Origin: an uncultured Planctomycetia bacterium
GTDB lineage: Bacteria > Omnitrophota > Gorgyraeia > 1-14-0-20-64-10
Direction: 5' to 3'
Length of the DNA stretch: 64,000 nucleotides
Assembly: GCA_964373715.1 (NCBI GenBank)
Contig: CAYJVR010000004.1
Coordinates: forward strand, 25,255-89,254
Shown here: positions 1 through 21,146 of the stretch, in pieces
Layout of the letters: each line of letters opens with the position of its first letter
Numbering within the stretch: the first letter of the stretch is position 1
Notes under the pieces: generated by a model
Database searches by the model: none
What the model was told of the DNA's origin: nothing
What the model saw: the letters and a program-made list of their open reading frames with translations, nothing else
Program-made: the position numbers and the translations under genes

Positions 1-3000
1 TGTCCTGAACCTTCGCCTCTTCGAGGCCGGCGGTGACGATCAGGAACGGCTCTTCGTACGGCCCGGTGGCCTTCAGCCACTGGCCGCTCCGGGGATCGCG
101 AACCTGCGTCGTGAGAACGTACTCGGCAATCCGGCTTGGCGCTGGAAATTCAGCGTAAAACAGGCGGGACCCTTCGGGAAGGACCGCGTAAAGGCGCATC
201 GGCACGTTCACCGGCTTGTCCGGCTCCTCAACCTGCCAGAAAGTGGTCTGCACCTCCGCCTCGCCGTTCGAAACGGATGAGGGCACAACCTCCGCCCAGA
301 CCTGCACCTTGTCGCCAGGAACCCGGATCACCTTCTGCCGGACGCCGTGCTCACTACCACGCAGAGGCCGCATCTTGAGGATTCTTGGCTCAACGGTCCT
401 TTCGAAAGTGGTCCGGGTCCTCTTGCCCTGAGGATCATTGATGACTTTCTGGACGCGCGCATTGGTCGCCTGCGCTATTTCTCCGGCGTTGGCCAGCAAA
501 GCCTCGACGGTGACCGGCTGCCGGTCACGCCACTTTTCGCCGAGCGCGTTGCCGGGAGGGGTGCTTCTAAAAGAGTTATCCAGCGCCATCCAATCCTGGT
601 ACATCACCAGCATGTGGTCCGCGGCGCTCCGAGTCAGCTTCATCAGCGAGGCGTCAAGAATCGCGGTGGCACGCGCTATCAGATTGCCTGCAGGGTACTG
701 AAACGAAGGGACTCTCAACTCTGCCCCAAGCACATGCTCCACCCGCTGAAGCTGTTCGCGGGTCGCACGGCTCTCCTGCTCCATCTCCAGGATATGGCCC
801 AACAACGTCGGTCCGTCATGGGTGCCGGTGAAGCCGTAGCTGTTTTCGGGATGCTCCAGAGTGCTCCAGAATCCGGGGTAGAAATTCGACATGCCGTACA
901 GCAGCAGGCGGATGCGCGGCAGCGCCAGTTCGTACCGGATCCTGGTGGCCGTGTCGAAAGCAGGGGCCCCTTCCGGGAAAGTCTCCGGGACAACCTCTCC
1001 CAAATGGTCAAACGTGACGATCTTCTGGAACTTTTGCATGAAGTCATGGCCCGGACCATCCACATACTGGGCATCGAGCATCCTCATAATCAGGTGAATC
1101 CAGATCTCGAGGTCTCCCCTGTCCCGGCCCTCGGGATCGGTCTTCATCAGGAATTCCCGCTCGAGTTTCTCCCTCGTGTTGGCGTCGGAAAGGGTCGGGG
1201 TTACCTGCTGCCATCCCCTTTGGGTCAGTGTGCCCATTCCGCGCAGGTCCGCGTAGGTCCCATCAAGAAGGATGAAACCAGTGGATTGGTACCTTGGCTC
1301 GTTCGGTCCCCAGACCAAGCGCCCCTGCTGGCGGATCACGGCGACAACCCCGTTGGCGAAAGAAGCCCGGTCGAAGAGAGGCTCATTAGGAGTCGGCGCG
1401 GCCGGCAGGGGGTAAAGCCTCTCGTCCATGATCGCCTGCCGTATCTTCTGCTCGAATTCCGCCCGGTTCTGGACCGGGGTTAAGGGAAAGGGTTCTCCCG
1501 GATATTTGGCGTCCCACGCGCTCTTCAACCGCTGGAACAGGTCCCTCAGCGGGATGTTGGGGTTGCCGCCGGTCCACTTGGCCACGTCGGTCGTAGCCGG
1601 GATCCGGAAATAGGTGCCGTAGCCGACCCAGTAGTCGGCCCGCACGTCGTCGAAAAGACCCGCGTACCGGCGGACACGGGCCATGTGGAGCGGATACCCC
1701 AGCCCCTTCTGCCCCGCCCAATCGTATGTCGGCGATCCGAAATCCTGGCCAACAACCGAATAGACGTCCACCGCCGCCCCCGACACGCCGTTGGCATCCG
1801 ACGCCTCCTGGAACATCCAGGCGGCGTCCCCATCCACGTAATGGGGCATGTCCCCCATGATGCGGATGCCCTTCTGATGGGCACGGTAAAGAAGGGCTTT
1901 CCACTGTTCATCCCAGACGAACTGGACGTACTCGTAGAATTGAACTTCGTCCGTGTGCTCCCGGCGCCATTTATCAATAGCCGCCGGATCCCGACGCTTA
2001 AGATCTTCATTCTTCCATTTCTTCCACCCCTCCCGCTCGGCGCCCGCGATTGTCATGAACGACGTGTAGCCGTTGAGCCAATAGGCTTCCTTTTCGCGAA
2101 ATTCATTGAAGGCCCGGGTCCTCGCCTCGTCTTTGTTCAGCACATTGTCCCGAAAATAGCGGTAGGCGGACCGGAGCACGTCCAGCTTGCCGCGCATCAC
2201 CGGTGGGTAGTCCACCTTCGGCTGGCCGCGCAACTTCGAGGCAGTGTTCGCAATGTAGGTATCGTACATCTGGCGCGCGTCGGCCGACGCCGTGACCTCC
2301 GAAACTCGCCGCAGCCCGATGAAGTTGATGTTGCCCGCAAACGCGGAGCGGGTGAGATACGGGGAGGGGTCCAGGTCGTCCAGGTCCCAGACCGGCATCA
2401 CGTACAGCTGCTGCATGCCCTGGCCGGCCATCCAGTCAATCAGTTTCTCGGTGGCGGGCATGTCCCCGATCCCTTCATCCTCTTCGGAGCGGACCGAGTA
2501 CATCGGCGTAATGTGCCCGACTTTCCGGGCTGCGATGCTTTGAGGATAAGCTTCCGTCGGCACGCCGATCTCCCTGGCAATCTGGAGCAGTTGTTCCACC
2601 TGGTCCGGAGAAACGATCGTCTTCAGCAGAGAACCCAAACTGTCAAAATAACGGCCGGAAGGACTGTTTGGCTGGTAAGCCCACCGGTAAGCGGCCCATT
2701 CAACCAGAAGTTCCCTGGCGAACTGGTCCACCTGGGCGGGGGTAGTCTGCGCGGCGGCAACGAGCGCGTTGAGGCGGGCCTTCAGCAGCGGCGGAACCGG
2801 GCCGAGCGTGCTAGTCTCCCCATCCAGTGTCAGCGTGTGATGAAGGACCAGATGGGCCTCCTCGCGCAATTCCTCGTCTGTGATGAGACTGATCGTTTTG
2901 CCGATCACCTCTTCCAATCCGGGAAGCGAGGGGGGCTTCCCGACCCGCGAAATACGGTCCAAAAGAACCGGATAGGGAAGGAAGGGTTCGGGTTGGGAAA

Positions 3001-3190
3001 CAGGATTCCCGGTCAATCGGCTTAACGTCCGGGTCAGCGGCCCCTTTCCGGAGACGAGCAGCGCATCCCGCAAATCGGCCGCCTGCTCCGGCGCCTCCGG
3101 CTGGCTGGGACGTAAAGCCCAGGCCTGAGGGGGCAGAAAAAGGGAGATTGTTAAGAAAAGTGCCGTCAATTGGGACAATAATCTTCTCAT
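1..3190 (-). CDS. GH77-like 4-alpha-glucanotransferase (amylomaltase) domain protein with N-terminal hydrophobic leader and extra N-terminal region; 3'-partial, C-terminus lies beyond the window start
   Basis: Reverse-strand frame is open from ATG (3190..3188) to position 1, and no stop-terminated minus ORF is listed here. Translation contains amylomaltase signature blocks: FREKEAYWLNGYTSFMTI, QWKALLYRAHQKGIRIMGDMPHYV (compare Thermus GIRIIGDMPIFV), DVRADYWVGYGTYFRIPA (compare VRIDHFRGFEAYWEIPA) and GFTGTHDGPT (compare YTGTHDNDT). N-terminus is MRRLLSQLTALFLTISLFLPPQAWALRP... with a GLEE motif near residue 95. The visible C-terminal end is ...TAGLEEAKVQD. Confidence 0.7.
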   Translation of the reverse strand, partial: MRRLLSQLTALFLTISLFLPPQAWALRPSQPEAPEQAADLRDALLVSGKGPLTRTLSRLTGNPVSQPEPFLPYPVLLDRISRVGKPPSLPGLEEVIGKTISLITDEELREEAHLVLHHTLTLDGETSTLGPVPPLLKARLNALVAAAQTTPAQVDQFARELLVEWAAYRWAYQPNSPSGRYFDSLGSLLKTIVSPDQVEQLLQIAREIGVPTEAYPQSIAARKVGHITPMYSVRSEEDEGIGDMPATEKLIDWMAGQGMQQLYVMPVWDLDDLDPSPYLTRSAFAGNINFIGLRRVSEVTASADARQMYDTYIANTASKLRGQPKVDYPPVMRGKLDVLRSAYRYFRDNVLNKDEARTRAFNEFREKEAYWLNGYTSFMTIAGAEREGWKKWKNEDLKRRDPAAIDKWRREHTDEVQFYEYVQFVWDEQWKALLYRAHQKGIRIMGDMPHYVDGDAAWMFQEASDANGVSGAAVDVYSVVGQDFGSPTYDWAGQKGLGYPLHMARVRRYAGLFDDVRADYWVGYGTYFRIPATTDVAKWTGGNPNIPLRDLFQRLKSAWDAKYPGEPFPLTPVQNRAEFEQKIRQAIMDERLYPLPAAPTPNEPLFDRASFANGVVAVIRQQGRLVWGPNEPRYQSTGFILLDGTYADLRGMGTLTQRGWQQVTPTLSDANTREKLEREFLMKTDPEGRDRGDLEIWIHLIMRMLDAQYVDGPGHDFMQKFQKIVTFDHLGEVVPETFPEGAPAFDTATRIRYELALPRIRLLLYGMSNFYPGFWSTLEHPENSYGFTGTHDGPTLLGHILEMEQESRATREQLQRVEHVLGAELRVPSFQYPAGNLIARATAILDASLMKLTRSAADHMLVMYQDWMALDNSFRSTPPGNALGEKWRDRQPVTVEALLANAGEIAQATNARVQKVINDPQGKRTRTTFERTVEPRILKMRPLRGSEHGVRQKVIRVPGDKVQVWAEVVPSSVSNGEAEVQTTFWQVEEPDKPVNVPMRLYAVLPEGSRLFYAEFPAPSRIAEYVLTTQVRDPRSGQWLKATGPYEEPFLIVTAGLEEAKVQD

Positions 3191-3696
3191 TTAATTAATG
3201 TTCCTGGGGTTGTTCGTTCTAGGCTTCTCGGATTGGAGTCTTGTTAATTATACCTGGTTTTAGATATTTGTTCAAGTCGCGCACAAAATTCTCTGTAACT
3301 TATTTAAATTAAATATCTTATGTATTTATAGTTTTGTGTTAATTAACGACTCTCCTCCTCCCGGAATCGCAAAATTATACCCTGCCTACCTTGATATTCC
3401 GGGCCGCCGTCAGGCATACTTGGGCTAGCAGTTCGGGATATCTGTATCCGTTAGCACATTCTCGATAAAGGCAAACCTCCGCCACAAGTCGTTGGCGGAC
3501 GCGCCAAGATGTGTGGCGCGCAGTGAAAGCTGGGGACGCAAAACCTCGGGCCCTCAAAGAAACGATGGAAAGGGCAGCCGGGTTACCGAAAGAGTGTTCA
3601 ATGGCTTTAAAGCCCGTTCAAAAGAAGCGGTATCGCCCGGTTTCCAAAGGGGAGATGCCGCTTTGCCGTTTTCTGCCCTTCCCCGGAGCAATCCAA

Positions 3697-4070: not shown

Positions 4071-4099
4071 TGAATTGAATAATCCAGGAGGATTTCTCA

Positions 4100-4461: not shown

Positions 4462-4481
4462 TCTACACCGAGTTGTTCCAC

Positions 4482-4521
4482 AAAAACGGTAGCCGGAGAA
4501 AAGGCTGCCGTTTTTGTTTTT
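4482..4521. terminator. bidirectional rho-independent terminator between convergent genes
   Basis: aaaaa-ACGGTAGCC-ggagaaaa-GGCTGCCGT-ttttgttttt: a 9-bp stem (one G-U pair) flanked by an A-run and a T-run, located between the 4100..4461 (+) and 4554..6053 (-) stops. Confidence 0.6.
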
Positions 4522-4553
4522 AAAGGAAATCCATTCGGTCAGGGAACCGGCTG

Positions 4554-6053: not shown

Positions 6054-6087
6054 GCGCCCATTCTAACAAAACAGGGCTGACGTCCTC

Positions 6088-6963
6088 TTAAAAAGTAACC
6101 CGGCCCCGCTTAGCCCTTAACTCGTTCATCCCTTTTTGTTGTTGCTTCATCTCTCTCTGGAGCTGCTTTATCTGCCCGTTCAACTGTTCAATGTAGATGT
6201 GAGCTTTCTCCAGCTCCTCCAATATCCCGCGCTGCGAAGCGGCAATATCCACGAACTCTTGCCCGGACTCGTCGAATTGAATCTGAGGAACCGCCCTCAG
6301 ATGGCTGCTCTCCCACATAAAGGCCGCATGCTCCTCAATCGACTCCAGAACATAACCGGGTTGAAACACATAGTCGGCATGGAGCACTCCTCCGCGCTGG
6401 TAAATCGGCCCGTTCACATCCAGCTTGGCAGAGGGATGCGGGTTGGTCGTTCCGATCCCAACGTTGCCGGTGCTTGCTTTAATGACCAGGAGATTGGCTC
6501 CATTGTTGTAAAAAGAAAAATCCTCGTTATTCCCCGCCTGACCGGTTCCAACAAGCCATTTATCAACTCCTGCCGTAGCGAACCTCACTAAGGCAACATC
6601 TGACGTACGATCCCTGCTGAGTCTCAACGAGACAGAATCCGGAGAGTCGATGATGAACGCCGGGTTCCCCCTCGAATGGGCCGCCTCAATAGCGAGCATT
6701 GCCGTCGGATTTGTCGTCCCGATCCCAATCTCTCCGGAGACCGCGAATCGGCCGTTTGGAAAGGATTCGCCATGATGTCTGTAAGACGCCCCGATGGTGC
6801 CCTTATTGGAGTGGAACCGGTTGAAATCTCCGTCGGTGGCAGCTGGGGCCGGGTAATAGGTAACGAGCTCCACCGTCTCTGCCCACGCAAAGCTCACCAA
6901 GACACTGAGAAACAGCGCGCCGCCTATTGCATGTATCTTCCAAATCCGTCCCGTGCAAGCCAT
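6088..6963 (-). CDS. secreted tail-fibre-like repeat protein (GIGTTNP repeats) with C-terminal coiled coil
   Basis: 291 aa. Signal peptide ...LSVLVSFAWA/ETVELVTYYPAPA. Repeats SGEIGIGTTNPTAMLAI and GNVGIGTTNPHPSAKLDV. C-terminus IEQLNGQIKQLQREMKQQQ is coiled-coil. N-terminus is paralogous to the 62695..64000 protein. Confidence 0.6.
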   Translation of the reverse strand: MACTGRIWKIHAIGGALFLSVLVSFAWAETVELVTYYPAPAATDGDFNRFHSNKGTIGASYRHHGESFPNGRFAVSGEIGIGTTNPTAMLAIEAAHSRGNPAFIIDSPDSVSLRLSRDRTSDVALVRFATAGVDKWLVGTGQAGNNEDFSFYNNGANLLVIKASTGNVGIGTTNPHPSAKLDVNGPIYQRGGVLHADYVFQPGYVLESIEEHAAFMWESSHLRAVPQIQFDESGQEFVDIAASQRGILEELEKAHIYIEQLNGQIKQLQREMKQQQKGMNELRAKRGRVTF

Positions 6964-8978: not shown

Positions 8979-8986
8979 GCCGCCAC

Positions 8987-9526
8987 CTACTCCGGATGAA
9001 ACCCGATTCGCCGGCGCGGCCGCGTCGGCGGCGTCATCAGCTGCCGGATCGCATCAAAAACTATTTTGAATCGAGCGTCGTATTTCTGCTCCAAGGCCTC
9101 TAGCCTTCGGGCTAAATCTTTGTGAGCAGTAAGTATCTCTCGAAGCTTCACGAAGGCACGCATGATTGCGATGTTAACCAACACCGCCCGTTTGCTGTGG
9201 AGCACGCTGGAAAGCATGGCTATTCCCTCTTGGGTAAAGACGTAGGGGAGATGCCCTCCCAGGTGCTTCCTGGAAGGTATCGCATTTTGCGATACCACAA
9301 TTTCCACTTCGTTCTCCGTAAGCTGAAACATAAAATCTGCGGGGAACCGTTCGATGTTCCTTTTCACCTGCTCCCTCAATCGGATCGCTTTAACTCCGTA
9401 AAGCTCCGCCAGGTCGGAATCCAGCATTACCTTATGCCCCCGAATAAAGAGGATGCGGCACTGCACACGCTCCACTGCGGGATTCTTGTGACGAGGTCTG
9501 GTAGTCATTCGGCAGTTAGAATACAC
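8987..9526 (-). CDS. ORF6N (KilA-N-like) domain DNA-binding protein
   Basis: IRGHKVMLDSDLAELYGVKAIRLREQVKRNIERFPADFMFQLTENE is the classic ORF6N signature. The alternative start MTTRPRHK at 9508 is possible. Confidence 0.7.
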   Translation of the reverse strand: MYSNCRMTTRPRHKNPAVERVQCRILFIRGHKVMLDSDLAELYGVKAIRLREQVKRNIERFPADFMFQLTENEVEIVVSQNAIPSRKHLGGHLPYVFTQEGIAMLSSVLHSKRAVLVNIAIMRAFVKLREILTAHKDLARRLEALEQKYDARFKIVFDAIRQLMTPPTRPRRRIGFHPE

Positions 9527-9618: not shown

Positions 9619-12600
9619 TTACGCGAAGATGGCGAAGTAATCCTCGCCCTCGATCGTCACCCGCTCGATCGTTCCTCTTGTCAGATCGAGAATGAGGTTA
9701 ACGAGGGCGTCGGGCCGGGCCAGAAACGCCGCCAGCGCGGCCCGGTCAATAAGGTGATAAGTGCTTGGCGACAGGAACAGGGCGACCGGGTGGTTTTCGG
9801 GCAGGCGCACCCCCTGCCCGAAATCAGGATTGAGCGCTATCACCACCTGCTTCCCATCGGCAAAATCATCGGTGGCCTCCTCGAGGAGCGCATTGGCCTC
9901 ATCCGTGTTCTGCTCTGAAACAGCCAGCGTACGGCCGATTGGCCACCCTTCCGGCAAAATCGCCATTGCACCGGAAACGACCGACAAATGGGCGTAAAGA
10001 TCCACGGAGCCAGGCCTCAGTTGGGCGGGAACCGTCTTTGCGGGAACCAAAATCGCCTGCGTGTACCCTTCGGCCTGGGCCGCCGCGGCCAATTCCACGC
10101 CTCTCCTGCCCAGCTCTTCCAGCGTCAAAACCCGGACCCACGGCTCCTCCAGACCCCCGGTAAGGCCGGTAATCAATCCGGCCACAATCGGCAGTATCTG
10201 TTCGAGCCGGGCCGGAGCCGCCTGTTCGGTGGCAATCTGCAGATGCCCTTCTCCTGTAACACGGAACCGGACCCGCGCAAAAACCTGGACATCCGGAGCC
10301 ATGGCGATATTGTGATAAAACGGTGACCATTCCTGCGCAGGCGGCAAAACACGGATGAGCTCTGCCAGCGCCGGGCGGTTCCACCGTCCCGACTCCAGCA
10401 CGGCAACCAAATGACCCTCCATGAATCTCCTCTGCGGCTTGGCGATAATGAACCCTCCCTCATCCACCACCTGGGCCGGTTGGGACCGGTTCCAGCTCTC
10501 AGGCCTTACCATGTCGCTGCGCCCAAGCCGGATGCCCCGCGTCGGATCCATGAATAGGGGAACTACGGACTGTTCATTCCCGTTGAGAAATTCCATGGTG
10601 TTCGGGGCATCGGCCCGAATGACCGAATCCTCCACCGTCTCCATAATTTCCTGGAACAGAGGCTGACCGGACTGCTCAAGCGGGGTCGGAGTCCGGGAGT
10701 TCTGGAATTCATCCTGCTCTCCGCCAAAGGCCGCGAAATTTTCCTGGGGGGCAAAACGGATATTGGCCGCAACCGCGCCGAGCATCTGAACCGTCTCCGC
10801 TTCCGCCTGGTCCCTCAGGCTGGGACGCACGCGGACCCCGGTCCGGCCGGCAATCTCCGCGCGTATGGCTTCGCCCGCCGTTCCGGAGCGAAGCCTTTCC
10901 CGGCGGGCTTCGAGCCGGCCTATCAGCGCGCCGGCTCGCTGGCCGACCAGCGGCAAATCATTCTGTTCCGTAAATTCCAAAAGAGGCAGAGCCACACCGA
11001 TGGAATCCATATCGTCGGCTAAAAGTTCCAGTCCCCGCACCGCCGCCTCCCGGACACTCACAGACGGTTCACCCCATACGTCGTCCGCGGTCCGGCCGGA
11101 AGGGTTCTGCCTCGTCATCAGCTCTCCGAAAAGATTTATAATCTGATTCCTCAGCGCCCTGTTCTCCCCGTAATCCAGCCTCGCCAGTCCCTCCACGGCC
11201 CGGGCGCGCGCGTTCAGCGGGCCCCTTTCTTCCAGCGTCAGCCAGCGTACAAAATAAGCCGCCAGCTCGCCCGCCGCGGCCGGAAACTTTTCCACGTAGA
11301 CCTCCGGGTTCGAGTAGGGCCACCGGCTGATCTCCACCGCGTCCCTGTCGGCCAAACGGCGGATAACAATATCGTTGAACGAAGCGAAATGCCCCGGCCC
11401 GTCACGAAGAGAGGTCTCCCGGCCGAGCACCTGCCCGTTTTCGGAAGAAACCTCCTCTACGAGGACCTCCCACCCCCTTTCAAGAGAGGGCACAGAAAGA
11501 CGGACGAACGTGCCGGGATTTCCCCGGTTGACAATCCGCAGCCCCATTCCCCATCTGGCCAAAAGCTCGAGAGGAACCACCACCGGGTTATCTGCCCGGA
11601 AAAAGAGTCTCTGCTCGAATTGGTCCCTCAGCTGCAGAGAAACGACATCCTTCGTGCTGCGGACCATCTCCTCGTAGAGGGTTTCTTCCAACCCGGCCGG
11701 GGGAATATCCAGCATGCTGATTACATTCGTGGCCCGCCCGACGGCCAGCTTGCCACCGTTCGGGCTGAAGGCCAAACTGAGGATCGAGTGGGGTCCCTTC
11801 ACCGTCCCCCGCGCTTCGCCCGCGTAGACATCCCAGAGATTCAAAACCCCGTCTCTTCCTCCGGTCGCCAGGAGATTCCCATCCGGGTTAAAAGCCAAAG
11901 CCAGGATCTCCTTGCCCGCCTTGTGCTGAAACTCATTCACAAAGAGGCCGGCCCTGTTCCACACACGGACAAATCCTTTGCTGTCGCCCGAGACAACCAG
12001 GGATCCGTCCGGGCTGAAGAGAACCACTGTGACGCCCCCTGCGTGTCCCCTTAAAACACGGAATCTTGTCGCCTCTTCGGAGAACCGATCGCTGACATCC
12101 CGCAGTTCGACGGTCCCCCTGCTTGTCCCGATCAAAGCGATGTTCCCGTCCGGGCTGTAGGCAACGCTTAATGGGAGGCCCTCCTCCGGCTTAAAACGTT
12201 TCACGATCCCCTCCCTGCCGGCATAATCAGCAGCCGCTTCCGGAGCCAGATTTTGGATGAGGGCCTCTTTCCTCAACCCGCCGACCAAAAGGAATTTCCG
12301 GTCCGGAGAAAAAGCGGTGCTGCCCGGATAGGGGGGGGTCTCCGGAAAGAGCGACGACCTGAATTCGATCCGCCCGATCGGATAGGCGTGGAACCAATCA
12401 TGCCGGACAGCGCTGGTGGAGTTGACCGACAGAACGGCCGACCCGGTGGAGGAAAATGCGACCTTTAAAACTCCTGCTTGCTGAATCAGTTTGCCATGGC
12501 CGCCCCTCGTCTCCCAGCTCCAAATCCGGACGGTTCCGTCATCGCTTGCGGAAACAAGCGTCTTACTCTTCGGCGCGGCGTTGAACGCGAGGCTTGTGAC

Positions 12601-13956
12601 CGCTCCGCGGTGGCCGGTGAAACCCTGTTTATTAAATTGATCCTCAACGGGAACTTTTTCTTCAAGCCCTCCCGCGAAATACGGGGCCATCTGCTGGATC
12701 TGCCAGAGAGGGTAAGCCGGGTCATCCAGCTTCATGACCTGGGCCAAGTTTCCGGCTATCTGGTTGAACCGCCCCGACAAGTTTGTGAATCTTATCTCGT
12801 TGCTGACCGGAACATTCGGAATAGCCGCCCGGATGATTTGGCCGGCCAGCTGAGCTCCGACTGCGGCGAGATTCCCTTCGGCGGCAAGCTGCTGCTGTTT
12901 CCGGGAACGGTCCACGGAGCGGGCGGCTTGAAGAAGGGCGTCCGGGACAGGTTCCGAAACAGCGGCCAGGGTTTGGGCCAACGCAGAGGCCAAAGCCTCT
13001 TCACTGAGAACCGGCGGAATTACCGCCGCAGAAAGCCGTTGGCTGTCTTGATACCAGATCAGAAGTTGCGCGTACTTCACCAAAGCAGCGTCCGTCAAAC
13101 GATACGGCCCCGGAGCGGCAAATAGGGAAAAAGCCGCCAGCCGGTGAACCGGCGTTTCTTTCTGCATCAACCGCGCCAATCGCTCTTCATCCCCGCTTTC
13201 GGAAAAATCTCTCGCCTGGTCAATGAATTCGGCAAGCTGGGTTTCGACAGGCTCGATCCGCACAAGACCTCCGAGCCGCAGACCTTCTCCGACGATCTGC
13301 AATACCTCAAGAATGCCGATCTCCTCATCCCGTACGCGGGTTGGATCGTCATTGTCCTGGAGCGGCACCATATTCACCGCTGTCTGCTCGTTGATCCCCC
13401 CCAGCCCGGCGCCCGCCAACGTGGAGCTGGCCTGAAAAGAGAGCCTCATCTGCGCCGCCAACCAGGCCTGCAGCAGAAGAAAATTTGCCCTGCCCTGGTC
13501 CAAAGGGCTGTCGCTCCCGGAAGAGGCTGTCATCACACGCCGGGAAGCCACGGGAAAACGGAAGTGTCCATTAAGAAAGAGGGCCAATTGAAGCGCCGTG
13601 GCGGTATTTAAACTGTATCGCTCTTCCAGTAAATTCACAACACGCTGAATCTGGAAAGGCTCGTCATTGGCCGGCACGCCATCCCCCGGGGTCCTTTCCT
13701 CTACTTCTTCCAACCCGGCCCCTAACCCGGCCAAGACTCCCCGGTCAAACCCCGCGACCCCGGCAAGTTTGTTTAACGTACCCTCTAATTTGGTGGCGCT
13801 TCGGCCGGTGAGCGCTTGCTCAAGGCCGGCAAGAACATCGGGAACTTCAGCGGGGGTTTCGTTTCGGAGCGCAACTGCGTGGCCAGGCAAGCTGAGCACC
13901 GCAGTCAAAAGCAGGGCTATCGTTTGTGTAAAAAACGCGTGTGGTCTCATGGTCAA
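9619..13956 (-). CDS. 1445-aa protein with N-terminal hydrophobic leader, WD40 beta-propeller repeats and a conserved about 190-aa C-terminal module shared with the adjacent 2365-aa protein
   Basis: N-terminus MTMRPHAFFTQTIALLLTAVLSLPGHAVALRNE. WD40-like repeats (SASDDGTVRIWSWE, VSGDSKGFVRVWN, LATGGRDGVLNLWDV, AYSPDGNIALIGTSRGTV). C-terminus ...GGLEEPWVRVLTLEELGRRGVELAAAAQAEGYTQAILVP...LILDLTRGTIERVTIEGEDYFAIFA. Confidence 0.75.
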   Translation of the reverse strand: MTMRPHAFFTQTIALLLTAVLSLPGHAVALRNETPAEVPDVLAGLEQALTGRSATKLEGTLNKLAGVAGFDRGVLAGLGAGLEEVEERTPGDGVPANDEPFQIQRVVNLLEERYSLNTATALQLALFLNGHFRFPVASRRVMTASSGSDSPLDQGRANFLLLQAWLAAQMRLSFQASSTLAGAGLGGINEQTAVNMVPLQDNDDPTRVRDEEIGILEVLQIVGEGLRLGGLVRIEPVETQLAEFIDQARDFSESGDEERLARLMQKETPVHRLAAFSLFAAPGPYRLTDAALVKYAQLLIWYQDSQRLSAAVIPPVLSEEALASALAQTLAAVSEPVPDALLQAARSVDRSRKQQQLAAEGNLAAVGAQLAGQIIRAAIPNVPVSNEIRFTNLSGRFNQIAGNLAQVMKLDDPAYPLWQIQQMAPYFAGGLEEKVPVEDQFNKQGFTGHRGAVTSLAFNAAPKSKTLVSASDDGTVRIWSWETRGGHGKLIQQAGVLKVAFSSTGSAVLSVNSTSAVRHDWFHAYPIGRIEFRSSLFPETPPYPGSTAFSPDRKFLLVGGLRKEALIQNLAPEAAADYAGREGIVKRFKPEEGLPLSVAYSPDGNIALIGTSRGTVELRDVSDRFSEEATRFRVLRGHAGGVTVVLFSPDGSLVVSGDSKGFVRVWNRAGLFVNEFQHKAGKEILALAFNPDGNLLATGGRDGVLNLWDVYAGEARGTVKGPHSILSLAFSPNGGKLAVGRATNVISMLDIPPAGLEETLYEEMVRSTKDVVSLQLRDQFEQRLFFRADNPVVVPLELLARWGMGLRIVNRGNPGTFVRLSVPSLERGWEVLVEEVSSENGQVLGRETSLRDGPGHFASFNDIVIRRLADRDAVEISRWPYSNPEVYVEKFPAAAGELAAYFVRWLTLEERGPLNARARAVEGLARLDYGENRALRNQIINLFGELMTRQNPSGRTADDVWGEPSVSVREAAVRGLELLADDMDSIGVALPLLEFTEQNDLPLVGQRAGALIGRLEARRERLRSGTAGEAIRAEIAGRTGVRVRPSLRDQAEAETVQMLGAVAANIRFAPQENFAAFGGEQDEFQNSRTPTPLEQSGQPLFQEIMETVEDSVIRADAPNTMEFLNGNEQSVVPLFMDPTRGIRLGRSDMVRPESWNRSQPAQVVDEGGFIIAKPQRRFMEGHLVAVLESGRWNRPALAELIRVLPPAQEWSPFYHNIAMAPDVQVFARVRFRVTGEGHLQIATEQAAPARLEQILPIVAGLITGLTGGLEEPWVRVLTLEELGRRGVELAAAAQAEGYTQAILVPAKTVPAQLRPGSVDLYAHLSVVSGAMAILPEGWPIGRTLAVSEQNTDEANALLEEATDDFADGKQVVIALNPDFGQGVRLPENHPVALFLSPSTYHLIDRAALAAFLARPDALVNLILDLTRGTIERVTIEGEDYFAIFA

Positions 13957-14048: not shown

Positions 14049-17000
14049 TTATGCAAAGATAGCAAAATAATCTTCCCCGTCGATCGTCACCCGTTCGATC
14101 GTCCCGCGAGTCAAATCGAGGATCAGATTTCTTAAAATCTGCGGTTGAGAAAGGAACGCTGCTAAAATCGTCCGGTCAATAAGATGATACGTCTTTTCTG
14201 ACAGGAGGAGCGCGACGGGATGGTTCTGCGGCAGCTGCAGGCCGGACTTTAAATCGGGGTCCAGCGCGATGACAACCTGCCGGCCCCTGGTAAATTCGTC
14301 GGTGGCTTTTCGCAGCAGATCATTTCCGGCAGAGGGATCGTTCTCCGGAATGGCAAGGATCTGTCCGATCCCCCACCCATCGGGCAGAATAGCCATCGCG
14401 GCGGAAGAAACGGAAGGCTGCGCGTAAAGATCCAATGTGGCCGATTCCATCCTGCTTAATACAGCTCCCACCGGAACCAAAACAGCTTGCGTGTATCCTT
14501 GAGCCCCAGCCTCTGCGGCCAATTCCACACCTTTCCTGCCCATCTTTTCAAGCGTCCAAACCCGGGCAGTGCTCTTTTCTTCCAAACCGGCTTTCGAAAA
14601 GGCATCCCGGATCTGAGCCGCTACCTCTTGGATGGACCCCCCCTGGACGGAAACCGGCAAACGAAAGATTATTTCGGAACCCTGCGCGCGCTCAACCGCT
14701 TGAATCGCGGGAGCTTCCCCCGCAGCGGTGTACAGATAACGGATCCTCCCCCCATCCGGCCCGGCCGTTTCCACCGTCAAGGAGCCGCCCGGGATATCCA
14801 TCACCGCTAGGTAGCTGGCGGAGAGGCCAATGCCCGCCTCCCCTTCGTCAAAACCGGTTTTTCGGGTCGATCCCGCCACTCGGACTGCGGTGTCGACCGG
14901 GATTTTCCACGGACCCGGGTTTTCATCCCGATAAGTCACGACGAGGGAACCGGTGGTTTTCCCCTCAGCGGAGACCACTCGCTCGATAGAAAACCGGAGC
15001 GCAGCCGACGGATGGCTTTCTTCCGGCACGTGTTCCAAAAGATTCTTCCCGAGCTCCTGAACCAAAAACATCAGCAGGGTTCCGCTCGTCCGGTTCTGCT
15101 CGTCATACGGCAGTCCCAGCACGGCAGCCGTCTCTGCCGCCAGCCGATTGACCGCCCGTTGGAAGAGTCCCGGATCGCTCAACTGGGCCGTCACTTCCCC
15201 AAGAACGGCGGTCTCCGGCTTCTCTTCCAAACCGGCGGGAATTCCCTTTAACCTGGAGAGGCTGAAGCTCGGTGTATCCGGTCCCCATCCGATAAGAATC
15301 ATTTTCCCTTCTTCAGTCCACCGGATGTTCAGGTCCAAAGTTTCCATGCGCACGAACTCGGAGAAACGGGGCGGCGGCCTCTGGGAACCGACGATCGTGA
15401 TCTTCTGGCCGGGCGCTGCGGAAAATCCTTCGGTCCGGACTTTGAAAAACTGTTCGTCCGGGACAACGATCTGGTCTTTGCCCGAAGGGATGACAAAAAA
15501 CCGTTGTTTGCCCGCCGCGGCGTTCACCTCGAGCAGGAACGTTGATCCGTCCCCCGCCGCCGGAACGGAAACGGGCGACACCTGCTGTTTGGAATCGGCG
15601 ATCTCCAGCGCCAGCACCTCGAACGAAACCCTCTCCATCTCCGCCAAACGGGCCACCCGGAAACGGGGCGTATCCGGACCCCAGGCGAACACCAGGCCGT
15701 TGTCCGGATCGTACCGGAAATTCATGTCGAGGGCTTCGATCCGGGCGGTTTTCGCGCCGACAGGCGGAGGCCGCCGGGGAAAACGGACCGGCATGACCCC
15801 GCCCCCTTCGAACCGGAAACCCTCCCGGGAAACTGTGATGTCGTCCTCGTCCAAAAGAACCGTATTGAGCCGGTCGTTGGCGCCGGTGAAGAAATATTTT
15901 TTGCCGGCCGGCGTATCGACCTCCACGAGAAAGATGTCGCCGGGCCTGACGTGGGGAACGATGACCGGCGAGATCTTCTGCGTCGAATCGGCCAATTCCA
16001 CGCCGAAAATCTCAAAAACTTTTTCATCGGGCTTTTCCGGCCTGCCGATCCCGAGTTCCGCCCGCACTTGCCGAACGAGACTGTCCCGCCGATAACGAAG
16101 CTCGAACGCTTGGCTCAAGACGGCAAGCGCCTCGGCCCCCCGCGCGTCGCTTATGGAAAGCAGAGCGTCGGCCCGCAGGGTCTCCAAGAGGATCATTTGT
16201 TGATAAGCCTCGTACCGGACCAGCCGGTCGGGGTTTTGCAAGGCGGTCTCGAAGGCCTTCTTCAATTCCTCATAAGAGCGCATGGCGGCTTCGTAAACCG
16301 GATCCGGAGACGAAGCCCGGGAGGGGTCGGGCTTGGGGGCGTCGCCGATCCGGACGCTCAGCCGGCGGGCGATCTGCCCTTCGGTAAAGTAGGCAAAACC
16401 GGCGGTTTTCTGAACGATCTGGGCCGAACCCGCCGGTGTCTCCGGAAGCAGACCCTGCCAATAAAGCTGCGCCCGTTCTTCCATAGCGCGGGTCAGATCG
16501 TTATAAAGGAACATCTCCGGCAAAGATCCGGCTTTCCGGATCTCTTCGATGGCGCGCTGGATCCGAATCTCCTTTATGCCCAGCAGAAAGACCGGCCCGC
16601 GCCGTTCCCAGCCGGGAGCCCATTGACCCGAGGGATGGATCTCCGCTTCGATCTGCTTTAAAACCACATCGATCAGGATCGACGGAGATTCTTCCCAGAC
16701 GGAAAGGAACGCCCGGATTGACTGGCCGGTCTCATCGCCGCAAATCCCTTCCAAAACAGCCGCCCGGGCTTGCCGAAGAGGAGGCGTATCGGCCAGGAAA
16801 ATGCCCCGGAGAAACCCCTGGACCTCCGGAGTATCGGAGAGCCAGAGCAGCGAACGGGTCAGAGAAACCCTCTGCTGGGCCGAGAAAGCCGGTGCCTGTT
16901 CAACAAGAAGATTCATCCTCTGGGCCGAATTGTTTTCCGGATCGAACAAACGGTTCAGGAGATTCCGCACCGCCGGGTCAATCTCCTCCGTACCTGCGCC

Positions 17001-20000
17001 GGCATTGTTTGGTTTATTTTCCGGCGGTTTCTCCGGATCGGCCGGAGGCTTTTCCGCGGCGATCTGCTGATCAATCGCCTGTTCGAGAAAAGCCATAAAA
17101 TCTTCTCCCTCGGCCTCGGCCGGAACAGCCGCCTTCTTTAACTCATCTTCCAATCCCAAAATAGCCGCAGCTCCACGCGGCTCTTCCTGGGACTCTTCAG
17201 AAACGGGTCCCTTCTGAACGGTCACCGGCAATCGAAACCGGAAAACCGATCCTGTCGTACCGGCGGCTCCCGCTTCCGCCTGGCTCACACTGCGCACCAA
17301 CTCGAGCACGCCGCTGCGCTTGGTCAATTCATTGCTCAAAGAGGACAGCCCGTATCCGGTCCCCTGCGTTCCGGCCGTTTCCGGCCGATCGAGCCGCTGA
17401 CCGTGTTGGAACAGCACCTCCTCGCGGCTTTTTTCCTCCCCCGCCACAGTGATCTTTGCAGGGATGCCGATGCCGTTGTCCTCGACGGTCACCTCCACCG
17501 TCCGATCCGCCGGAGAATAGACCGCCGTGACGGCAACCTCCAGCGCCTTATCTTGCCTCCGGTACTTCGAGGTGTTCTCCAAAAGCTCCACGAGAGTGGA
17601 GCGGATGAGCCTGGATTCCTCCGGGCTGACATACAGCACGCCCCCTCCTTGCGTCCACTGCAAACTGTCATAGCGGAGGGTAAACTGCCCCGCCCGGGAT
17701 TCGATCTCTTCCCGAAGAATAGATCCGACGTCAACGTGAATCTGTTCGGCAGGCTGCGAAATTTTTCCCAGGTCAACTTCGATTGTCGCGCCGATGTCGG
17801 CCAAAAATTGGTTCGCCTCCTGGACCACCCGGTCGACTCGGTCGGCCAGCTTCCGAACGTCTGCGGCAATTTCCTGGTCGCTTTCCTTCTCGGCAATCGC
17901 TCTGAGTTGGGACGCGAACTCCCTAACCCCCTTAAACCGGGCAATGAAGGTCTGCAGTTGCGGGATGAATTTCTGATTTTCATCGTCCCATTCCTCAACA
18001 GCGGCGATAGCGGAGGAGGCCAAAGCCTCCCAAGCGGCGAGAATTCTTTGCGCCTCCGGATTATCCTTCAATCCGGGATCATCCAAGTGGCGCCGGTAGA
18101 GGGCGCGAACCTCTTCCGGATCGAGATCGCGCACAGCCTCTAAAAAATCCAAAGAAACGCTGTGAAAAAGCTTGTCGAAAACCTCCAGGTTCTGCAGCGA
18201 GGGAGCTTTACGGGCCTGCGCGGGAGGCTCCTTTTTCACCGGCCTCTTTCCCGCCAGGCGCATCACAACCCGCGCTTCCTCGGCCCGCTCAATAATAAAC
18301 CGTTGGACCTCCTGCGCAAGAACGTACAGAACACCGGCCTCCGATTCAAAATCCATGGAAAAAAGCTCGGCCGACGCCGACACGCCGGCGAGTCTGTTCT
18401 TCAAGTCGTGGAGGATTCCGGTGATTCTTTGCCCTTCCTTTTCCAGGTTCATGGCATTCCGATATAACCGGTAATTCCGGACGTTCTGCCGCGCAAAGAG
18501 AGCCGCATTGCCGACGGTCTGCAGAATCCGGAGAACCTGCAGCCGGTAAGCTTCCGTTTCCGCTTCCGACTGTCCCGGGAATAAGGGTGCTCCGCTCTTC
18601 CAGTTATTCACCATGAGCAGCCCCCAGGGCCGGTGGTCAGCATCTCGAAGAACAACGTAGTAGACCGAGCGGACATTGTCGAGATTCCCGCCGGCGTATG
18701 TCTGCGCGTCTTTGGCCAAAAGCGTCTGATCAACGAAATCTGCCTTCTGCCTGTCCTCTACATAAAGATCATCCACACCGCTCTCAAGAGCCTTTTTCTT
18801 TTCATGAGTGGCGGGCGACCAAGAGGCGGCCGCCGACATTCCTTCCAGCGCCCTGATTTCGCTCAGGATTTGAAATTCGTTCGGCTTTTCCGATTGCCGG
18901 ACAAGATAGAGGACCGCGCCGCTGTACCCTAAAACCTCCCGGGCCGACCGGACGAACGGCTGCTCCACCGCGGTCTCATCCTGTGCGGCAAAAAAATCGT
19001 TCATGACACCCAGCAAGGACCCGAGTAAATCCGACGGCATAGATGTAGATATCGCTCCGCCAGGCGGCTTCGTCTCTTCCTCCATACCGGCTGTTTGAGG
19101 CGGCGGACCCTGGGGGGCTTCCAGCCGTTCCCGCAGCATTTCGACAACCTGGTCGTGGTAGCTGCGGACACCCGCATGAACCTGCAGCCTGCGGGCCTGC
19201 TCCAGGGCTTGGGCCACTTGCCGTTCCGAAGGACGGGATTCGCGCCACCAGCGGCGCACCTCGTCTCGCGTGTCGGTCGGGAAGATCTCCCGAATTCGCT
19301 TTTCCGCGGTCCGTTCGGCGGCATGGACCAGGATCGCCGGGATAAGCTCCATCGCGAGGGTATTCGGGTCCAACTCCCCCTTCTCATACCCTTCCTCGAT
19401 GACCCGCCGGACAGCCGTGACGGCTCTGCGCCGCGAAGAGAGGATCGCGTCCCGGGCCCGTTCGAATAATGCCGGAGAATCGGTGATCTCCCGAGCCATC
19501 TGCAGGTGCATCCTCTCTTCATGGATTAATGCGGGGGTAATCTGCCGGGCGTCCTCCCCATAAAGCTCCGACGCCCGGATCAGCACCACCCCCTGCGCAT
19601 CGATCGCCGCCTCGATCAGGTGGTCCAACTCGTATACCCCGTCGAGACCCAGGTACTGGCCCGCCGGAATACTCTCGAGCCGCCACCTTTTGCCGGTGGG
19701 ACTGCTGTCGAAATTCGAAACCGCATTGGGAAGCACCGCCATTCCCGCCGCCCGATCATCGGCTGATGAAGCGGTATCCAACAGGGAGAAGAGGGCATCG
19801 GCGACGACATAGATCGGGACATCAAGCGTCCCGGCAGAAACCTCCCGGAGCATCGGCTCCTGCTCCTCAAGACCGGCGCTGGCGGTTACCTCGAGCATCC
19901 GCTCGATCAACCCGGAAAAATCGCGCAGCGACAGCATCGTGGGGACCGGCTGCGGATTATTCCCTGTCTCGATGTCGGTCAGCAAAGCCGTCGCGCTGAC

Positions 20001-21146
20001 CGTCTGCGTGTTGTTGGTCCGCAGATAAGCGGCGAGCGCCGAAACCAGATCCGGCAGAGCCCGATGAGCCTCCAATGCCGTCGGATGAGCCAAGTAAGCG
20101 TTCTGGAGCTGGGCATCCAGCGGGATTCCCCTTTCCCCCATAATCACATAGAGAAAATCGTCGGCGGAAATCCCGGAACCGATCATCCCCAGCAGAGGAG
20201 CCTGATTCGTCAGGAACTCCTGGAGCGCGGCCGGGATCGCAGAGGCTGGATCCTCGTCGTCATCCTGGATCCTTTTCCGGAGACTCTTGCTGAGGAACCG
20301 GAGCTGAACGCGGAGCGTTTCGGGGCTTTCTTCAAACCCCGCGTTGCCGCGGCGGATCTTTTCGAGGATCATTTCCCCCACCTCGCCCCGGACCTCTCCG
20401 GCGTGCGCGAGGCATTCCCGTTCGAACCGGTCAATCGCCTGCTTCCCAAGCCTCGAATCAATCCTCACCAGCGCGGAGGCAACGCCGGTCAGCGCGTACG
20501 TGCTCCAGGCCAAGTGGGCGTCCAAAAGGGCGTCCCGTCTTTTCACCGAACGCTTGAACGTCTTCTCGCGCGCCTTGAGAGTCTCGATGCTCAGCACCGC
20601 CTGCAGCGCGGCAACGACTCTGTCTTTCTGCGGGACTTTTGCTCCAAGAGCTCCGAGAACCAGCGCGGCTCCGCGCGGATTTTTCCAGTTCGAGTGATCA
20701 TTCAACCGCTCCAAAAGGAAATCTATGGCCCCGTCTGAATCATTGGCGACAATCTTTCTCAGCGCACCGCGGGCTTCGTCCAGATACTCGACATCCAGCG
20801 ACAGGTTCTGAAAAACATCCGTCAGAACCGGCAGACCCTGGACCCCTTTGGCAACCAGCTTGCCGGCCGCCGCCTGCCGGGCCACAGCATCCTCGGTCAT
20901 GAAATCAATCCAGGCCGGTTCCTTCTCTTCCAACCCGGCAGAGGGGACCACCGTTCCCACAAGCCCCGTTATCCTGTCGGTTAAAACCCGGGTATTCACG
21001 GAAGTCAGCGCACGTTTAAGCTCCTGCTCGACATTTCCCTCGGCAGCCTCCTGCGGTTTCAAGGCATAGGCAGGGTTGGGCAACGCTAGCGCAAGCGATA
21101 GCAAAAGCCCTAAAATTCTATATAGAGGAAACGGTTGTAATCTCAT
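14049..21146 (-). CDS. 2365-aa multidomain protein: hydrophobic leader, helical region, GAF-like domain, histidine-kinase core (HisKA H-box plus HATPase_c), two tandem beta-rich repeats of about 190 aa, a degenerate second HATPase-like segment, and the shared C-terminal module
   Basis: H-box ITGILHDLKNRLAGVS. HATPase N-box LVELLENTSKY, G1 VEDNGIGIP and G2 GTGYGLS. Tandem repeat FE[IV]..[VL]E[IL]ADS.Q.[IV]SPV.VP...G..FL.EV...AGK..FF...GWGPDTP.F. Second degenerate ATPase-like block LVQELGKNLLEH...GEAGIGLSASYLAVMDIPGGSLTVET. C-terminus ...LILDLTRGTIERVTIDGEDYFAIFA. Confidence 0.75.
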   Translation of the reverse strand: MRLQPFPLYRILGLLLSLALALPNPAYALKPQEAAEGNVEQELKRALTSVNTRVLTDRITGLVGTVVPSAGLEEKEPAWIDFMTEDAVARQAAAGKLVAKGVQGLPVLTDVFQNLSLDVEYLDEARGALRKIVANDSDGAIDFLLERLNDHSNWKNPRGAALVLGALGAKVPQKDRVVAALQAVLSIETLKAREKTFKRSVKRRDALLDAHLAWSTYALTGVASALVRIDSRLGKQAIDRFERECLAHAGEVRGEVGEMILEKIRRGNAGFEESPETLRVQLRFLSKSLRKRIQDDDEDPASAIPAALQEFLTNQAPLLGMIGSGISADDFLYVIMGERGIPLDAQLQNAYLAHPTALEAHRALPDLVSALAAYLRTNNTQTVSATALLTDIETGNNPQPVPTMLSLRDFSGLIERMLEVTASAGLEEQEPMLREVSAGTLDVPIYVVADALFSLLDTASSADDRAAGMAVLPNAVSNFDSSPTGKRWRLESIPAGQYLGLDGVYELDHLIEAAIDAQGVVLIRASELYGEDARQITPALIHEERMHLQMAREITDSPALFERARDAILSSRRRAVTAVRRVIEEGYEKGELDPNTLAMELIPAILVHAAERTAEKRIREIFPTDTRDEVRRWWRESRPSERQVAQALEQARRLQVHAGVRSYHDQVVEMLRERLEAPQGPPPQTAGMEEETKPPGGAISTSMPSDLLGSLLGVMNDFFAAQDETAVEQPFVRSAREVLGYSGAVLYLVRQSEKPNEFQILSEIRALEGMSAAASWSPATHEKKKALESGVDDLYVEDRQKADFVDQTLLAKDAQTYAGGNLDNVRSVYYVVLRDADHRPWGLLMVNNWKSGAPLFPGQSEAETEAYRLQVLRILQTVGNAALFARQNVRNYRLYRNAMNLEKEGQRITGILHDLKNRLAGVSASAELFSMDFESEAGVLYVLAQEVQRFIIERAEEARVVMRLAGKRPVKKEPPAQARKAPSLQNLEVFDKLFHSVSLDFLEAVRDLDPEEVRALYRRHLDDPGLKDNPEAQRILAAWEALASSAIAAVEEWDDENQKFIPQLQTFIARFKGVREFASQLRAIAEKESDQEIAADVRKLADRVDRVVQEANQFLADIGATIEVDLGKISQPAEQIHVDVGSILREEIESRAGQFTLRYDSLQWTQGGGVLYVSPEESRLIRSTLVELLENTSKYRRQDKALEVAVTAVYSPADRTVEVTVEDNGIGIPAKITVAGEEKSREEVLFQHGQRLDRPETAGTQGTGYGLSSLSNELTKRSGVLELVRSVSQAEAGAAGTTGSVFRFRLPVTVQKGPVSEESQEEPRGAAAILGLEDELKKAAVPAEAEGEDFMAFLEQAIDQQIAAEKPPADPEKPPENKPNNAGAGTEEIDPAVRNLLNRLFDPENNSAQRMNLLVEQAPAFSAQQRVSLTRSLLWLSDTPEVQGFLRGIFLADTPPLRQARAAVLEGICGDETGQSIRAFLSVWEESPSILIDVVLKQIEAEIHPSGQWAPGWERRGPVFLLGIKEIRIQRAIEEIRKAGSLPEMFLYNDLTRAMEERAQLYWQGLLPETPAGSAQIVQKTAGFAYFTEGQIARRLSVRIGDAPKPDPSRASSPDPVYEAAMRSYEELKKAFETALQNPDRLVRYEAYQQMILLETLRADALLSISDARGAEALAVLSQAFELRYRRDSLVRQVRAELGIGRPEKPDEKVFEIFGVELADSTQKISPVIVPHVRPGDIFLVEVDTPAGKKYFFTGANDRLNTVLLDEDDITVSREGFRFEGGGVMPVRFPRRPPPVGAKTARIEALDMNFRYDPDNGLVFAWGPDTPRFRVARLAEMERVSFEVLALEIADSKQQVSPVSVPAAGDGSTFLLEVNAAAGKQRFFVIPSGKDQIVVPDEQFFKVRTEGFSAAPGQKITIVGSQRPPPRFSEFVRMETLDLNIRWTEEGKMILIGWGPDTPSFSLSRLKGIPAGLEEKPETAVLGEVTAQLSDPGLFQRAVNRLAAETAAVLGLPYDEQNRTSGTLLMFLVQELGKNLLEHVPEESHPSAALRFSIERVVSAEGKTTGSLVVTYRDENPGPWKIPVDTAVRVAGSTRKTGFDEGEAGIGLSASYLAVMDIPGGSLTVETAGPDGGRIRYLYTAAGEAPAIQAVERAQGSEIIFRLPVSVQGGSIQEVAAQIRDAFSKAGLEEKSTARVWTLEKMGRKGVELAAEAGAQGYTQAVLVPVGAVLSRMESATLDLYAQPSVSSAAMAILPDGWGIGQILAIPENDPSAGNDLLRKATDEFTRGRQVVIALDPDLKSGLQLPQNHPVALLLSEKTYHLIDRTILAAFLSQPQILRNLILDLTRGTIERVTIDGEDYFAIFA

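Follow-up and report, generated by a model that had tools for sequence, protein, structure and literature searches.

What could make large proteins with unrelated cores carry the same two ends? The question arises from a stretch of 64,000 nucleotides (contig CAYJVR010000004.1 of assembly GCA_964373715.1; "the window" below means this whole stretch), in which three long open reading frames (ORFs), all on the minus strand, encode a GH77 4-alpha-glucanotransferase (1-3190, running off the window), a WD40 beta-propeller protein (9619-13956) and a kinase-like protein (14049-21146). The WD40 and kinase-like genes adjoin on one strand, and the GH77 gene lies approximately 6.4 kb further on. An earlier interpretation of the letters of this DNA (the sequence-only reading) had pointed out that unrelated cores are bracketed here by a homologous leader and a homologous C-terminal module. 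This is borne out on the scale of a whole family: the module was found in 58 protein clusters, always C-terminal, and the leader stands on the complete N-termini.

The family is undescribed and rare, and has so far been seen in Candidatus Omnitrophota groundwater genomes. Its most informative feature is a short motif, AGLEE, at every junction between modules. We tentatively suggest that the members are exported, polyprotein-like carriers in which AGLEE could be a processing site and the C-terminal domain a sorting domain, a proposal whose chances we put somewhat below even.

Results

The C-terminal domain

The module of the kinase-like protein was used as the query of the family search and of the structure prediction. 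It shares 64% identity over 179 amino acids (aa) with the module of the WD40 protein (E 4e-80), in agreement with the sequence-only reading, which had seen it in these two complete proteins. The visible C-terminal end of the GH77 protein reads GLEEAKVQD and then meets the window edge. Only if the GH77 protein continues into it would the module be shared by cargo ranging from an amylomaltase to a beta-propeller and a kinase; it is visible in the latter two. No GH77-bearing relative was found among the family matches, and a word-index homolog search gave no GH77 ortholog.

An exhaustive profile search of 1.84 billion representative proteins with the module returned 61 matches, 43 of them at E <= 1e-10. 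Three were false positives among repeat proteins and the others represent 58 genuine clusters (50% identity), which rules out a local lineage duplication without other members. In 58 out of 58 genuine members the module ends 14 residues or fewer from the C-terminus. The word-index search with the module returned only P0001, and scans of genome and metagenome collections with a three-sequence module alignment gave no match; a nine-sequence subset of the module alignment found two genome loci and three metagenome loci. Both loci that carry organism names are Candidatus Omnitrophota groundwater metagenome-assembled genomes (MAGs).

The AlphaFold2 model of the module is a three-layer alpha/beta domain with a terminal beta-hairpin. 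It reached a predicted local distance difference test (pLDDT) of 95.1 and a predicted template modelling score (pTM) of 0.89 with an alignment of 46 sequences, up from a pLDDT of only 47 with three sequences. The AGLEE of the module lies ahead of strand 1 in the stretch of lowest confidence (first 10 residues, mean pLDDT 74). Profile searches of PDB sequences, Pfam (E <= 0.01), NCBIfam, PADLOC and PHROGs gave no match to the module; its fold had no significant PDB match, the fold matches found being generic. In keeping with the novelty claimed by the sequence-only reading, the confidently modelled module thus matched no well-characterised domain. A defence-system or phage origin was rejected, as neither PADLOC nor PHROGs gave a match. 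Since Pfam and NCBIfam have no model for it, the domain merits a family entry whatever its function.

The 46-sequence alignment contains no invariant polar residue, and its best-conserved stretch is the terminal LDLTxG(S/T)...V.I.G.DYFAIFA. A catalytic module (autoprotease, HAD-like or receiver-like) was considered and discarded: 15-20% of the members have other residues in place of the His, Asp and Ser/Thr of the LYAH, ALD and LDLTxGS motifs. Because it has no invariant polar residue and no profile match, the module is probably a non-catalytic recognition or structural domain.

Family C-termini end in a beta-hairpin, either ...GxDYFAIFA or ...YYALDIAA, with no terminal transmembrane helix or basic tail. 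In one subfamily (P0028, P0036, P0037, P0044 and P0054) the N-terminal third of the module is missing and the hairpin is replaced by ...ELPxPxSxxSLRxAA; in these proteins ANAGLEEA stands at the alignment position of the long helix.

The junction motif

Scanning all six frames of the 64 kb for G[LMF]EE we counted 12 copies in the three window proteins and one elsewhere. The sequence-only reading had placed a GLEE landmark at about residues 65 to 95, and the first copy is indeed found at residue 91 (GH77), 79 (WD40) and 71 (kinase-like). As a single landmark near the N-terminus the motif was nevertheless underrated, for its copies join all the modules.

The positions of the recognisable domains follow the same borders. 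The GH77 domain (PF02446, 241 bits against a cut-off of 25, so that the gathering-score test is passed) lies wholly within one GLEE-bounded segment, residues 91-1055. The WD40 propeller matches (approximately residues 437-751) are flanked by motifs at 428 and 753; the Pfam run took an upstream TTG start, which shifts residue numbers by about two between the Pfam matches and the motifs of this protein. The HATPase_c domain of the kinase-like protein falls inside the motif-bounded segment 687-1385. Neither in the window proteins nor in the scanned family members does any Pfam domain match straddle a motif, and GNAT, PP2C, PfkB, KDPG aldolase, receiver, acyl carrier protein (ACP), GGDEF and Trypsin_2 domains each lie within one motif-bounded segment.

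The codons of the motif vary from copy to copy (GGA TTG GAA GAG, GGC CTC GAA GAG, GGT CTG GAG GAG and others), and selection therefore acts on the peptide and not on a DNA repeat. This rules out that the junctions are a repeat or a recombination site at the level of DNA. In a WD40 ortholog of approximately 90% identity (locus L001, MAG GCA_023248015.1) the motifs are kept while neighbouring residues vary.

Across the family, G[LM]EE occurs 130 times in 41,941 aa compared to 2.4 times expected from composition, a 53-fold enrichment. The logo is [P]-[AS]-[ATSG]-G-[LM]-E-E with unconserved flanks: [ATSG] precedes the glycine in about 98% of the 130 copies, A-A is conserved in only 35-60% and G-L-E-E is essentially invariant. 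The proteins have one to six motifs, in exposed linkers, and most members show a canonical or variant motif just ahead of the C-terminal domain. Over some 190 kb of related loci the motif reaches 3.0 copies per 1000 aa in family ORFs compared to 0.05 in the other ORFs of the same loci, a comparison that is partly circular as ORFs with at least two motifs were counted as family; motif-rich ORFs in these loci are always family members. In the literature searched, nothing relevant to the AGLEE or GLEE motif was found.

The predicted signal-peptidase site of the leader and the AGLEE motif resemble each other, both presenting a small-x-small pattern followed by Leu, Phe or Met. This likeness in sequence would fit a protease site at AGLEE, without proving one.

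The leader

The three window N-termini can be aligned, as the sequence-only reading had found. A basic n-region opens each of them, a hydrophobic core (10-15 residues) and a c-region LPxxAxA come next, and L(R/K) stands behind the c-region. Searched for in all six translated frames of the window, the pattern P..[AV].A[LF][RK] gave five matches, three of which are exactly these N-termini (mean of shuffled sequences 1.8). Including the window proteins, approximately 27 complete family N-termini were judged by inspection to carry an LPxPA(F/Y/W)A|(L/F)(R/K) leader; the regular expression gave 29 matches, two of them doubtful. Usually the next landmark is a GLEE(L)xxAL at a distance of 3-12 residues; another AG(L/M)EE, with which the short propeptide ends, comes 15-40 residues later. 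Members without a leader resemble truncated gene calls, one example being P0015, a truncated form of the L003 protein that does have a leader.

By inspection, the features predicted for a Sec signal peptide cleaved by signal peptidase I are present, namely the basic n-region, the h-region (10-residue hydropathy maxima of about 1.9-3.0 among genuine leaders) and small residues at -3 and -1. The family leaders have neither a conserved twin-arginine motif (S/T-R-R-x-F-L-K) nor a lipobox Cys where the h-region ends. As the leader is shaped and oriented like a cleaved Sec signal, most of each protein would be expected to end up outside the cytoplasm. Much of the leader looks like any Sec signal peptide; what sets it apart is the fixed c-region, the L-R behind it and the short propeptide.

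A basic residue is conserved at the predicted +2 position of the family leaders (L-R, L-K or F-R, for example 13864-13869, 21057-21062 and 3110-3115), which is uncommon among the Sec substrates of model bacteria. A 291-aa protein of the same window (6088-6963, minus strand) has an ordinary signal peptide, FAWA|ET, without L-R, and the L-R rule is therefore not general to the secreted proteins of this genome. This protein has weak matches to phage tail fibres (PHROGs, E 1e-6) and, by eye, an apparent C-terminal coiled coil.

The cargo

For cargo, 22 family members were scanned individually with Pfam (the three window proteins and 19 others). The matches comprise GHKL ATPase, GGDEF, PP2C, GNAT, receiver, PfkB kinase, KDPG aldolase and ACP-like domains, in addition to a trypsin-like protease, an RNA polymerase alpha-CTD-like repeat, WD40, HEAT, TPR and GH77. 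Each protein carries one to six unrelated modules, most of them without a Pfam match. Few modules other than the C-terminal domain recur: WD40 is found in four members and a GHKL-like module in the kinase-like protein (residues 1972-2186) and P0004.

In the window Pfam recovered the GH77 and WD40 labels of the sequence-only reading, and an HATPase_c domain in the protein that it had labelled GAF/histidine kinase. GAF and HisKA went undetected there at E <= 0.01.

The recognisable cargo is largely of cytoplasmic type, and much of it depends on ATP, GTP or acetyl-CoA. A leader shaped for export on cargo that needs these cofactors is a paradox. It has been noted before in long Omnitrophota proteins, in which signal peptides commonly occur together with regulatory and metabolic domains (bioRxiv 10.64898/2026.06.07.730766).

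Some further observations concern single modules. The second GHKL-type module of the kinase-like protein adjoins the C-terminal domain, and P0004, which shares the module, has a PP2C domain (Pfam) as well; this pairing is reminiscent of a partner-switching set of kinase and phosphatase within exported proteins. The two tandem domains of about 127 aa in the kinase-like protein directly precede a GLEE junction. In locus L002 (1907-5521, Candidatus Omnitrophota nzgw286) the first cargo of a family member is a Trypsin_2 serine-protease module (residues 128-316), and this family-encoded protease could be a candidate for the enzyme acting on the junctions.

Discussion

Comparison with known systems

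As far as can be judged from sequence, the family would be assigned to the secreted proteins of modular build that end in a sorting domain; neither end of the proteins is matched by a curated model of Pfam, NCBIfam, PADLOC or PHROGs. Cargo of the type IX secretion system (T9SS) is similar: very diverse proteins start there with a Sec signal peptide and have, at the extreme C-terminus, a conserved folded domain. There, a linker precedes the C-terminal domain (CTD), the CTD is cleaved after sorting and the signal-peptide site follows lineage-specific rules; the window family has a linker motif and a fixed site. The T9SS CTD is, however, an Ig-like beta-sandwich of approximately 80-100 aa, whereas the module here is modelled as a three-layer alpha/beta domain of 180 aa and has no Pfam or NCBIfam match at E <= 0.01, the T9SS models (Por_Secre_tail/TIGR04183) included. 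T9SS cargo belongs to the Bacteroidota and has no repeated junction motif, while the named lineage of the AGLEE family is Omnitrophota. No gene of the T9SS machinery (PorK/L/M/N, Sov, PorU/V) was found within the 64-kb window.

PEP-CTERM/exosortase, LPXTG/sortase and GlyGly-CTERM substrates end in a short motif, a hydrophobic helix and a basic tail; the family C-termini have neither a terminal transmembrane helix nor a basic tail. Autotransporters and outer-membrane barrels have a C-terminal beta-barrel of at least 250 aa, compared to an alpha/beta domain of 180 aa without a Pfam match in the family. Cellulosomes are similar in that a common terminal module on many catalytic cargos suggests a shared partner; here no dockerin or cohesin model matches the family, the fold differs and the cargo is not mainly carbohydrate-active. 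Profiles, fold and sequence together rule out an identity as T9SS CTD, PEP-CTERM, LPXTG, autotransporter, dockerin, twin-arginine (Tat) or lipobox protein. The sequence-only reading had already set aside the first three and the dockerin, and the lack of a curated model or a significant fold match upholds it.

The multiplicity of the cargo can be compared with that of MARTX toxins, in which several unrelated effector modules, cytoplasmic-type enzymes, share one polypeptide. Processing sites lie between the MARTX modules, which are set free inside the target cell; in the AGLEE family there is a motif between the modules, and cleavage is something we only infer. MARTX toxins also differ in being secreted by type I systems without a Sec signal and in having glycine-rich repeats and an internal cysteine protease that cuts after Leu. 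The 22 scanned family members gave no Pfam match to MARTX-type domains, and all complete members have a Sec-type leader.

Substrates with a double glycine, cut by C39 peptidases, share a small residue and Gly at -2/-1 with the [ATSG]-G of the motif. Their leaders have no hydrophobic core and their consensus no L-E-E after the Gly; the family leaders have a Sec-type h-region and the motif is defined mainly by L-E-E. Scans of family members and loci matched no C39 domain. According to West-Roberts et al., giant proteins of Omnitrophota contain C39 and S8 peptidase domains, which were proposed to cut them into several products at points that these authors called unknown. The site of LapA-type adhesins, (T/A/P)-A-A-(G/V), is similar to the PAAG half of the motif, a likeness that is a lead and not a test. 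LapA, a large exported protein released by the periplasmic protease LapG, is secreted by a type I system and has one such site; in the family it is the A-A that varies and the G-L-E-E that is kept.

Potential mechanism and alternatives

The carrier model sketched at the outset would work as follows. Each family protein would be exported by Sec, and the C-terminal domain could serve as the common handle for a sorting, secretion or attachment machinery in a manner similar to the T9SS CTD. AGLEE would be the recognition site of a dedicated endopeptidase, which might remove the propeptide and the C-terminal domain and split the cargo modules from each other, as in the processing of a polyprotein. 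The final destination, as the most speculative step, may be the cytoplasm of another cell, since much of the cargo is cytoplasmic-type and depends on ATP, GTP or acetyl-CoA. The role in targeting, anchoring or assembly which the sequence-only reading had suggested for the bracketing modules is likewise something we can only infer.

Several observations speak against the carrier model. A basic +2 residue after the signal-peptidase site disfavours Sec export in Escherichia coli, and the conserved one here may mean that the N-terminal signal is handled differently. A few members, for example P0010 and the L010 protein, have no canonical motif. In the ANAGLEEA subfamily a GLEE lies within the folded C-terminal domain as well, and the sequence alone can therefore not specify cleavage. 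In the neighbourhoods examined no protease or transporter co-occurs with the family, the neighbours all being housekeeping genes. To our knowledge, an alpha/beta C-terminal sorting domain is without precedent.

A multivalent assembly is the alternative that survives best, although we regard it as rather unlikely. AGLEE would then be a docking peptide of the short-linear-motif kind instead of a cut site, bound by the C-terminal domains of other family members or by a separate receptor, and the proteins would form an extracytoplasmic mesh or scaffold similar to a cellulosome or a condensate. The numbers suit this arrangement, with a single C-terminal domain per protein facing one to six motifs in exposed linkers; so does a non-catalytic domain whose most conserved part, LDLTxG...V.I.G.DYFAIFA, is the surface-forming terminal hairpin, and there are scaffolding repeats (WD40, HEAT, TPR) among the cargo. 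Members with one motif or none are harder to accommodate, and catalytic cargo that needs ATP or acetyl-CoA fits poorly into an extracellular mesh.

It is also conceivable, if unlikely, that the family reflects ordinary paralog expansion by domain shuffling, with AGLEE as an inherited linker at recombination joints, a structural or oligomerising C-terminal domain and no dedicated machinery. The rarity of the family, its named organisms all within one candidate phylum, neighbourhoods without conserved partner genes and the modules common to several members, as shuffling predicts, would be in agreement with this. One must keep in mind, however, that the pentapeptide is near-invariant with varied codons although the C-terminal domains share only 25-40% identity and the cargo is unrelated. 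Unconserved flanks around a 53-fold enriched motif are not how neutral linkers behave, and the c-region of the signal peptide and its +1/+2 residues are likewise fixed.

We consider very unlikely a third alternative, in which the N-terminal segment stays uncleaved and anchors large multi-domain signalling scaffolds in the cytoplasmic membrane, while the motifs and the C-terminal domain take part in regulation inside the cell: cytoplasmic-type signalling cargo is dominant (HATPase, GGDEF, PP2C, receiver, GNAT) and the largest class of long Omnitrophota proteins is membrane-anchored with the bulk in the cytoplasm (bioRxiv 10.64898/2026.06.07.730766), but the basic n-region before the core predicts N-in/C-out by the positive-inside rule and hence a bulk outside the cytoplasm, the helix-breaking prolines of the c-region and the small residues at -3/-1 are typical of cleaved signals, and there is a single hydrophobic segment per protein.

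Returning to the exported carriers, a bolder version would take AGLEE as the cleavage code of an Omnitrophota-specific pathway, a new route defined jointly by the signal peptide, the junctions and the C-terminal domain, in which strings of cytoplasmic-type effectors are exported, cut and delivered, perhaps into prey, and the motif may then mark the cut points of giant proteins. We think it improbable, though worth stating. Predatory or parasitic traits have been proposed for Omnitrophota (PMC10066038), and delivery into another cell fits such a lifestyle.

Omnitrophota are uncultured and widespread, and their very long proteins with signal peptides and many "cytoplasmic" domains are a puzzle. 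The five-residue junction motif, the fixed end of the signal peptide and the new, confidently modelled domain provide a testable handle on the proposed cutting of such proteins. Should AGLEE prove to be a processing site and the domain a sorting signal, this would add a class of sorting signals outside the CTERM and CTD systems, tell how multi-domain proteins of this type divide into functional units and supply a sequence signature by which the exported or effector proteins of an uncultured phylum could be listed.

Feature positions and genomic context

The features of the three family genes are collected in Table 1.

Table 1. Positions of leaders, junction motifs, domains and C-terminal modules in the three family proteins of the window.
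Protein	Feature	Position	Strand	Basis
GH77	TAGLEE junction (17-28) and residues that may start the C-terminal module	1..28	-	motif scan
GH77	4-alpha-glucanotransferase domain, residues 229-891	518..2506	-	Pfam PF02446, E 2.8e-71; NCBIfam malQ-type models
GH77	GLEE junction PGLEE, residues 91-94	2909..2920	-	motif scan
GH77	leader/propeptide, signal peptide to first GLEE	2921..3115	-	alignment with the other two leaders
GH77	predicted Sec signal peptide MRRLLSQLTALFLTISLFLPPQAWA, then LR	3116..3190	-	n/h/c regions, A-x-A before L-R
WD40	C-terminal module, 178 aa, GGLEE to ...GEDYFAIFA-stop	9622..10155	-	pairwise alignment; in 46-sequence family alignment
WD40	GLEE junction PAGLEE directly after propeller	11683..11694	-	motif scan
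WD40	beta-propeller between two GLEE motifs	11704..12648	-	Pfam WD40 and beta-propeller models
WD40	GLEE junction AGGLEE directly before propeller	12658..12669	-	motif scan
WD40	GLEE junction GAGLEE	13705..13716	-	motif scan; kept in L001
WD40	leader/propeptide with degenerate first motif AGLEQAL	13717..13869	-	leader alignment
WD40	predicted signal peptide MRPHAFFTQTIALLLTAVLSLPGHAVA, then LR	13870..13950	-	sequence; kept in L001 ortholog
Kinase-like	C-terminal module, 179 aa, AGLEE to ...GEDYFAIFA-stop	14052..14588	-	pairwise alignment; AlphaFold2 model
Kinase-like	second GHKL-like module, residues 1976-2186	14589..15221	-	segment clustering; homologous to module of P0004
Kinase-like	GLEE junction PAGLEE	15222..15233	-	motif scan
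Kinase-like	tandem unannotated domains of ~127 aa, residues 1708-1834 and 1838-1966	15249..16025	-	39% identity, E 5e-31
Kinase-like	variant junction GAGTEE (GTEE form, beyond the G[LMF]EE set)	16983..16994	-	sequence
Kinase-like	HATPase_c (GHKL ATPase), residues 1179-1309	17220..17612	-	PF02518, E 3.8e-15
Kinase-like	H-box-like ILHDLKNRLAG	18384-18416	-	by eye; ~260 residues upstream of HATPase_c
Kinase-like	variant junction TAGMEE	19077..19088	-	motif scan
Kinase-like	GLEE junction SAGLEE	19863..19874	-	motif scan
Kinase-like	variant junction NAGFEE	20328..20339	-	motif scan
Kinase-like	GLEE junction SAGLEE	20925..20936	-	motif scan
Kinase-like	leader/propeptide, degenerate first motif GNVEQELKRAL	20937..21062	-	leader alignment
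Kinase-like	predicted signal peptide MRLQPFPLYRILGLLLSLALALPNPAYA, then LK	21063..21146	-	sequence, n/h/c pattern

The sequence-only reading had envisaged a conserved co-occurring gene such as a transporter or a sortase-like enzyme. No such partner was found among the neighbours of the family genes in 10 non-redundant related loci (including L001-L004, L008-L011 and L013). The neighbours are housekeeping genes: ruvABC with spoIID, queA-tgt-secDF, der-plsY-gpsA, complex I and ribosomal protein S15.

Divergent from the kinase-like gene, the window encodes an M48 (HExxH) metalloprotease of 267 aa with a lipoprotein signal, LLMSGC (21317-22120, plus strand). Because it is not adjacent to family genes in other loci, it is only a weak candidate for a processing enzyme.

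The region 26041-61249 encodes a Rieske/cytochrome b (bc-type) complex, a multihaem cytochrome c, the futalosine menaquinone pathway, UbiA/D/E/X-type enzymes, biotin synthesis and TldD/PmbA. Judged by this gene content, the organism looks able to respire and biosynthesise and not strongly reduced. Downstream of the WD40 gene, an ORF6N-domain gene and a Mg-chelatase/ComM-like gene (7452-9526, minus strand) stand in reversed order compared to the closely related locus L001 (4446-6493).

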